Assembly: GCA_002441245.1 (NCBI GenBank)
Contig: DJVP01000008.1
Span: 234,540-298,539, forward strand
DNA length: 64,000 nt
DNA from: Candidatus Omnitrophica bacterium UBA6253
Lineage (GTDB): Bacteria > Omnitrophota > Gorgyraeia > Gygaellales > Profunditerraquicolaceae
Reading direction: 5' to 3'
The text below is the continuation of a report on this DNA, generated by a model with database tools. The DNA is not shown here.

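Follow-up and report, generated by a model that had tools for sequence, protein, structure and literature searches.

The giant ORF divides into two parts: a head (aa 1-5172), which is free of the punctuation motif considered here, and a tail, from aa 5173 onward, made up of a string of modules punctuated by that motif (residues are counted in codons from nt 40496, so that the Met at nt 40499 is aa 2; modules are lettered in order). By its predicted features the ORF belongs to the C39-type giant proteins of Candidatus Omnitrophota, and a Tad/Flp pilus cluster lies a short way upstream of it. Membership of this class is indicated by an N-terminal hydrophobic segment followed by a Peptidase_C39 domain, by N-terminal homology and by an ORF of more than 20 kb (here at least 23.5 kb) near pilus genes. 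A search with the N-terminal region retrieved 292 homologues at E<=1e-3, many of them 2,000-7,000 aa long, with the stronger ones ~45-69% identical over the first ~280 aa; they are labelled as coming from Ca. Omnitrophota and Ca. Gygaella obscura. One gene is called for the giant ORF in the NCBI annotation of the 100%-identical contig JAQUMA010000002.1.

Giant ORF, head features and neighbouring clusters
40499-64000, + strand: giant ORF, a stop-free frame that counts no fewer than 7,834 aa from its Met and is still open where the window ends
40565-40633, + strand: N-terminal hydrophobic segment, TM1 or signal anchor (1.93 in a Kyte-Doolittle 19-residue window), conserved in the family
40853-41281, + strand: C39-like papain-fold cysteine peptidase domain (PF03412, E 6.5e-11, 42.6 bits against a cutoff of 22)
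22665-38919, + strand: Tad/Flp-type pilus or secretion cluster upstream of the giant ORF (Pfam)
18467-22111, - strand: FIST / HK / REC-GGDEF operon, separate from the giant ORF (Pfam)

The C39-like domain carries catalytic-type residues, a Cys in RPCGS (nt 40886-40888) and a His in GDHYVLV (nt 41153-41155), both of which are 98% conserved among 132 aligned sequences (the window and 131 family members). The Tad/Flp cluster encodes a parvulin/SurA-like PPIase, RcpC/CpaB, a secretin, a TadZ-TadA fusion, pilin-like small ORFs and two T2SSF genes, and the order T2SSF-T2SSF-giant is repeated at L031 and L035, the loci of two relatives.

Every border in the tail bears a short peptide of consensus [GAS][SAT]-S-S-P-[V/I/A], and its copies are listed below.

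Copies of the border motif in the tail
56012-56023, + strand: first SSP[VI] motif, aa 5173 (motif scan)
56135, 56876, 57038, 57626, 58829 (SSPA), 59615, 60458 and 61346, + strand: further copies (motif scan)
62252-62263, + strand: TSSPV, aa 7253-7256, at the border of modules I and J (motif scan)
62648-62659, + strand: TSSPV, aa 7385-7388, three residues ahead of strand beta-1 of the receiver (REC) domain
63011-63022, + strand: SSSPV, aa 7506-7509, immediately past REC helix alpha-5
63224-63235, + strand: SSSPI, aa 7577-7580
63617-63628, + strand: TSSPA, aa 7708-7711

Within aa 5161-7835, SSP[VIA] occurs 14 times, against a mean of 0.17 and a maximum of three in shuffled sequences; it is found neither in the 5,160-aa head nor in the 11,833 aa of the other ORFs of the window. 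An unbiased 4-mer scan over the whole protein likewise ranked SSPV, SSSP and SSPI as the most enriched. The codons employed differ from copy to copy, implying that selection acts at the protein level rather than on a DNA repeat, and an origin of the motif as a DNA-level repeat or recombination site can be ruled out on the same ground. Internal translation starts can be discarded too, since the codon that follows SSP is mostly GTT, ATT or GTA and no Shine-Dalgarno-like sequence accompanies it. The same applies to a hidden stop or alternative genetic code: no single codon recurs at the motifs and the neighbouring ORFs are of ordinary size under translation table 11.

That the tail has the architecture of a motif-separated string of compact modules can be stated with high confidence. 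The modules are 37 to 400 aa each and mostly of single-domain size, some of them being just 37-50 aa of low-complexity sequence. Those discussed in the text are as follows.

Modules of the tail
56147-56875, + strand: module B, following SSSPI (sequence reading and hydropathy)
61358-62251, + strand: module I (hydropathy 2.67; 81% identical to the related giant P0001)
62264-62647, + strand: module J, 128 aa, all-helical, possibly three HEAT/ARM-like hairpins
62660-63010, + strand: module K, CheY-like receiver (REC) domain, 117 aa (PF00072)
63023-63223, + strand: module L, putative winged helix-turn-helix, 67 aa, with sub-threshold HTH matches only
63236-63616, + strand: module M, GNAT acetyltransferase, 127 aa (PF00583 and PF13508)
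63629-64000, + strand: module N, start of a further module, cut by the window end

Taken together, and as predicted from sequence, the region from J to N starts with a helical module, possibly built of repeats, continues with a receiver whose phosphorylation pocket is intact, a small domain that is probably a winged helix and a GNAT whose acetyl-CoA motif is intact, and ends in the truncated module N. The receiver and GNAT domains proposed by the initial annotation are secure. Module K scores 69.5 bits against PF00072 (cutoff 30.2, E 3.4e-19), is 73% identical to the REC domain of the related giant P0002 and matches CheY 6er7 at E 1.8e-15, its residue 2 aligning with residue 2 of this free-standing 120-aa CheY. 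The receiver had been described as complete, with a Thr among its active-site residues; the acidic pair (D7396/D7397), the acceptor D7440 and K7484-Pro are indeed in place, while the Thr proves to be a Ser (S7468). No cognate kinase module is present in the seen part of the giant ORF. Module M exceeds the gathering thresholds of both PF00583 (38.6 bits against 20.7) and PF13508 (37.7 against 27), and GNAT matches were obtained in the PDB and NCBIfam as well. Of the profile, positions 28-116 are matched. The module contains motif A, R7653-G-Q-G-I-G7658 (nt 63452-63469), which fits Q/R-x-x-G-x-G/A and aligns with motif A of the GNAT structure 7dai.

The two remaining domains of that early reading did not gain profile support. 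For the segment read as a HEAT/PBS-lyase-like repeat, module J (aa 7257-7384), no match to HEAT types or to anything else was obtained in Pfam, NCBIfam or PDB sequences at E<=10. Its AlphaFold2 single-sequence model comprises seven helices (pLDDT 72.8), for which Foldseek places alphaRep, ARM, 14-3-3 and TOG structures on top, all at non-significant levels (best E 0.34, TM <=0.5). The segment read as HTH-like, module L, yielded no significant HTH or winged-HTH profile match, the best being AbiEi_4 (E 0.017, 15.7 bits against a cutoff of 25) and HTH_29 (E 0.11), with SlyA in the PDB at E 0.08; in a low-confidence model (pLDDT <52) the DSSP string over aa 7509-7574 is H-E-H-H-E-E. A single-sequence model of the whole 582-aa tail, covering the REC, winged-HTH and GNAT folds, has a pLDDT of 41 and is unusable. 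Module N gave no significant match in profile, homologue or NCBIfam searches, and NCBIfam searches with ten modules added nothing besides the GNAT.

Two modules of the window begin with export-type sequences directly behind the motif. Module B opens, right behind SSSPI, with the Sec-type signal-peptide-like sequence KAIARFMVLPLLAMGLSLAAPSLTIAQ/S. It also holds a zincin motif, HEVGH (nt 56525-56545); as module B has no Pfam match, its assignment as a protease depends on this motif. A paralogous relationship between module B and the region before aa 5173 was considered and rejected, the similarity being limited to 16 aa around the motif. Module I has a strongly positive N-terminal flank followed by a TM helix (nt 61448-61516), giving it the look of a positive-inside signal anchor. 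Further along it contains a putative lysozyme-like domain of the Tse3-type muramidase kind (nt 61727-62023), with a Glu in AILTAERLD. The match to the PDB entries of Tse3, 4n80 and 3wa5, is weak (E 0.0045) and aligns AILTAERLD with AIILAEQRD of the catalytic-Glu region; that to PF22115 (E 0.083, 13.3 bits) lies below the cutoff of 27.

The motif was followed in three tails (the window and the related giants P0083 and P0090, the latter from Ca. Gygaella obscura) and four tail fragments. In the orthologues P0017 (61% identical), P0018 and P0001, SSP is retained at the same borders and the flanks are variable. P0001 is 81% identical to the window protein as far as the I/J motif and unrelated from ~5 aa beyond it, so that module content switches at the motif. 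In P0002 a motif lies 7 aa past a full-length GGDEF domain and 2 aa ahead of a REC domain, the same motif-then-REC arrangement as at the J/K border of the window; it reads TSSPVGVRILVVDD in P0002. In P0083, which is more distant with 52% N-terminal identity, [AST]SSP[LVIA] occurs 11 times from aa 4514 on, against two in the preceding 4,500 aa; this protein bears tandem duplicated motifs and a signal-peptide-like sequence behind its own motif.

P0090, which also carries an M54-like module, has DNG[ND] at six borders (expected number of DNGN 0.09), found 2 aa past a HATPase_c domain, 3 aa ahead of a REC domain and again after the latter. From these positions, DNG[ND] is taken to have the same role in P0090 as the SSP motif in the window. 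Two canonical twin-arginine motifs, SRRTFLK and TRRDFIK, follow DNG[ND] by 1-4 aa, some 5,000 aa into the chain; the pattern [ST]RR.F[LIV]K has no further match among 169 sequences. Both border motifs, SSP[VI] and DNG[ND], are composed of the strongest turn-forming residues (S, P, D, N, G).

Other approaches to the relatives' tails were less productive. A homologue search with modules L, M and N found nothing at E<=1e-3, and a genome-contig scan, through an IVDDEEMQ pattern, and a metagenome search with weak patterns each returned just unrelated REC genes. When REC, GNAT, GGDEF, methyltransferase and modules I and B were run with phmmer against 150 family members, only the REC and HK of P0090 matched. 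The 4-mers KDGQ, ARLV, PDST, INPA and YSIT, enriched in long family members, were considered as border motifs and rejected because they lie inside repeated domains or tandem repeats.

The best explanation of all this, which we put forward tentatively, may be that the tail is a polyprotein and the border motifs its processing sites. The tail displays a recurrent conserved site in linkers between autonomous domains, as processed polyproteins do, and protease candidates lie in cis, namely the C39-like domain and HExxH motifs at aa 4648 and 5345. The giant ORF would then be a bacterial polyprotein, effectively an operon inside one protein, and the motif a candidate recognition site for processing, a role that we consider quite possible. 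Cleavage would most plausibly be performed by a protease in the same polypeptide, the candidates being the C39-like cysteine peptidase conserved at the N-terminus and an internal module with HExxH. Once freed, the REC, winged-HTH and GNAT modules would serve in the cytoplasm as small stand-alone regulators or enzymes; for modules starting with a Sec signal, a signal anchor or, in the relative, a Tat signal, the fate would be export or membrane insertion. It could, more speculatively, be that C39-type Omnitrophota giants as a class are true bacterial polyproteins, with SSP[V/I] here and DNG[N/D] in Ca. Gygaella as the cleavage sites at which many autonomous proteins are freed. Among them would be a CheY-like regulator and a GNAT, as well as histidine kinases and pre-proteins with Sec or Tat signals of their own.

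Some observations sit uneasily with cleavage. Characterised C39 peptidases, from which the domain here diverges, cleave after Gly-Gly, and SSP[VI] and DNG[ND] are both unlike GG leaders. A Pro beside the scissile bond is unfavourable for many proteases. The very short low-complexity modules and the tandem duplicated motifs of P0083 also fit poorly. Moreover, the turn-forming make-up of both motifs allows for a purely structural role as domain insulators. The corresponding alternative, which we regard as rather unlikely, is that the giant remains an uncleaved, membrane-woven single chain, in which SSP[VI] and DNG[ND] are turn-forming linkers that insulate neighbouring domains against misfolding, the hydrophobic and twin-arginine segments are internal start-transfer signals, and REC and GNAT act in cis at the cytoplasmic face. 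The high turn propensity of the motif residues suits this explanation, and very short linkers fit beads on a string. Internal twin-arginine motifs can function uncleaved in dual Sec/Tat polytopic proteins, such as Streptomyces Sco2149, so that export signals behind a motif do not strictly need a free N-terminus. A self-consistent alternating topology can, furthermore, be drawn with the five hydrophobic segments of the window protein (aa 24, 2479, 5217, 6838 and 6981). TM-only giants have also been read as anchored in the inner membrane with their regulatory domains cytoplasmic (Nielsen & Lui 2026, 10.64898/2026.06.07.730766). However, that five-TM topology, with the positive-inside rule applied at the TM helix at aa 6981, places the Tse3-like module, REC and GNAT all outside the cytoplasm, where there is no ATP, acetyl-CoA or phosphodonor, and P0090 has just one strong TM helix ahead of its HK module and Tat signals. 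Generic linkers also vary, yet here one exact 4-mer recurs within a protein and another 4-mer replaces it in the other lineage; a single exact 4-mer at every border points to recognition by a specific factor.

An outside location of modules I-N under the positive-inside rule would, on the other hand, suit a tail of effector cargo of the kind carried by the MARTX toxins of Vibrio. The giant would be exported with the help of the Tad-like machinery and its modules (the Tse3-like muramidase, GNAT and REC, plus GGDEF in relatives) freed at the motifs inside the cell of a prey or host. In conserved synteny, the Tad/secretin cluster directly precedes the giant ORF, module I resembles Tse3, an anti-bacterial muramidase of the T6SS, and close relatives differ in module content much as polymorphic toxins do. 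GNAT-fold toxins are known, and the literature on these giants includes proposals of a predatory or episymbiotic lifestyle and of a role in targeting the cell wall. Nevertheless we judge this improbable: the REC, HK, winged-HTH and methyltransferase modules are housekeeping-type regulators and not typical toxins, Tat and Sec signals behind motifs imply that modules begin in the producer's own cytoplasm, neither translocation repeats nor immunity genes were seen, and the similarity to Tse3 is weak among PDB entries and sub-threshold in Pfam.

It is more doubtful again whether the motif is a sequon for post-translational modification, its Ser being O-glycosylated by a GT-C enzyme during export, or phosphorylated, so as to protect or regulate the linkers. 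The window does hold a PMT_2 gene (GT-C protein-mannosyltransferase/ArnT-like, 15232-17373) with a GT2 gene beside it, and a parvulin-type PPIase heads the Tad cluster. The O-glycosylation sequon of Bacteroidetes, D-(S/T)-(A/I/L/V/M/T), requires a methyl-bearing residue, which the [V/I/L/A] behind Ser-Pro resembles. Yet the PMT_2 gene belongs to a radical-SAM cluster 23 kb from the giant ORF, to which its link would be hypothetical; sequons usually occur inside domains too, whereas this motif is strictly at borders; and DNG[ND] of P0090 contains neither Ser nor Thr, so that a single modification chemistry cannot account for both motifs.

An artefact, be it compositional domain matches, a head-tail assembly chimera or separate genes hidden by an unusual code or internal starts, is scarcely tenable: although an NCBI contig of the same organism ends at ~56,170 of the window (aa ~5224), exactly at the head/tail border, so that the tail comes from one assembly, and the tail finds no match in the protein database at >=90% identity, the REC and GNAT domains lie well above curated cutoffs with catalytic motifs kept, GC content is flat over the junction (~56.1 kb), where a chimera is unlikely, head and tail share a single contig in two independent relatives (L031 and L035), and the ordinary neighbouring ORFs, the varying motif codons (no single codon being a hidden stop) and the non-start codons behind SSP speak against concealed genes.

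Ever since Omnitrophota giants, of up to ~147,000 aa, were first described, it has been an open question whether they function as intact chains or as cleaved pieces. Cleavage by C39 or S8 domains has been proposed, with the cleavage points stated to be unknown, an absence of information that blocked even in-silico analysis (West-Roberts et al. 2023, 10.1101/2023.11.21.568195). The border motifs make the question directly testable. Existing metaproteomes could be searched for neo-termini at exactly these positions, giants could be divided by rule into domains before structure prediction, and a minimal substrate, for example J-SSPV-REC, becomes available for assay with the C39-like domain. Should the polyprotein explanation be true, these would be the first defined cleavage points for Omnitrophota giants and a cellular counterpart of viral polyprotein expression, revealing a cellular polyprotein strategy in ultra-small, host-dependent bacteria and explaining how cytoplasmic-type domains (REC, GNAT, HK, GGDEF) come to share one ORF with exported enzymes. 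If cleavage were refuted, the motifs would still mark domain borders in otherwise unannotated sequence.

The closest known systems are the Omnitrophota giants themselves (West-Roberts et al. 2023, 10.1101/2023.11.21.568195; Nielsen & Lui 2026, 10.64898/2026.06.07.730766). The ORF resembles their 'multi-enzyme' class and PF03412 (C39) architecture cluster in its N-terminal hydrophobic segment, C39 domain and length above 20 kb, and it shares their pilus or type II-like secretion neighbours, the few annotated domains in the head and the tiling along the polypeptide of REC and GNAT, possibly also HEAT, and in its relatives of HATPase_c and GGDEF. Term searches of the two main texts gave no instance of 'linker', 'polyprotein', 'twin-arginine' or 'internal signal'; the word 'motif' appears in just one of them, and there solely in the title of a reference. 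SSP[VI] and DNG[ND] as border motifs, and the export signals behind them, appear to be undescribed so far.

Beyond this phylum, the MARTX toxins are likewise very large polypeptides in which unrelated effector or enzyme domains follow one another, joined by unstructured linkers that a cysteine protease of the same chain cuts. Their protease is the clan CD, InsP6-activated CPD, which cuts after Leu, and their modules are shuffled between strains. The window protein is similar in its size, its unrelated domains and its in-cis cysteine protease candidate, which is, however, a clan CA C39-like domain at the N-terminus. It differs also in its fixed 4-mer sites, its housekeeping-type regulators and its modules with their own Sec or Tat signals; RTX repeats were not seen. 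In viral polyproteins the short conserved site changes from lineage to lineage together with the protease, which the same ORF encodes, picornavirus 3C for instance cutting between Gln and Gly. They share with the giant the presence of many autonomous proteins in one ORF, a short conserved site between them and a protease in the same ORF; here, by contrast, the gene is bacterial, exceeds 23 kb and lies beside a pilus locus, the motifs differ from any viral site and cleavage is a candidate only.

For individual elements there are other parallels. Polymorphic toxins have demarcation motifs, VENN in CdiA and DPxGL in Rhs, which occur once per protein before a single C-terminal toxin. These too are short conserved peptides at the border to interchangeable modules, recalling the way in which similarity between the window and P0001 ends at the motif, but in the window protein the motif is present at every one of at least 14 borders and immunity genes were not seen. 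Dual Sec/Tat polytopic membrane proteins, such as the Streptomyces Rieske protein Sco2149, have 3-5 TM helices and a single Tat-dependent domain; P0090 is similar in having internal twin-arginine motifs ahead of a hydrophobic segment in mid-polypeptide, but dissimilar in that these lie ~5,000 aa in and directly behind a recurring border motif. Finally, module K corresponds in length and termini to a complete free-standing CheY with all pocket residues present, and module M has the minimal GNAT size of small stand-alone GNATs. Unlike either, both form part of a chain that exceeds 7,800 aa.

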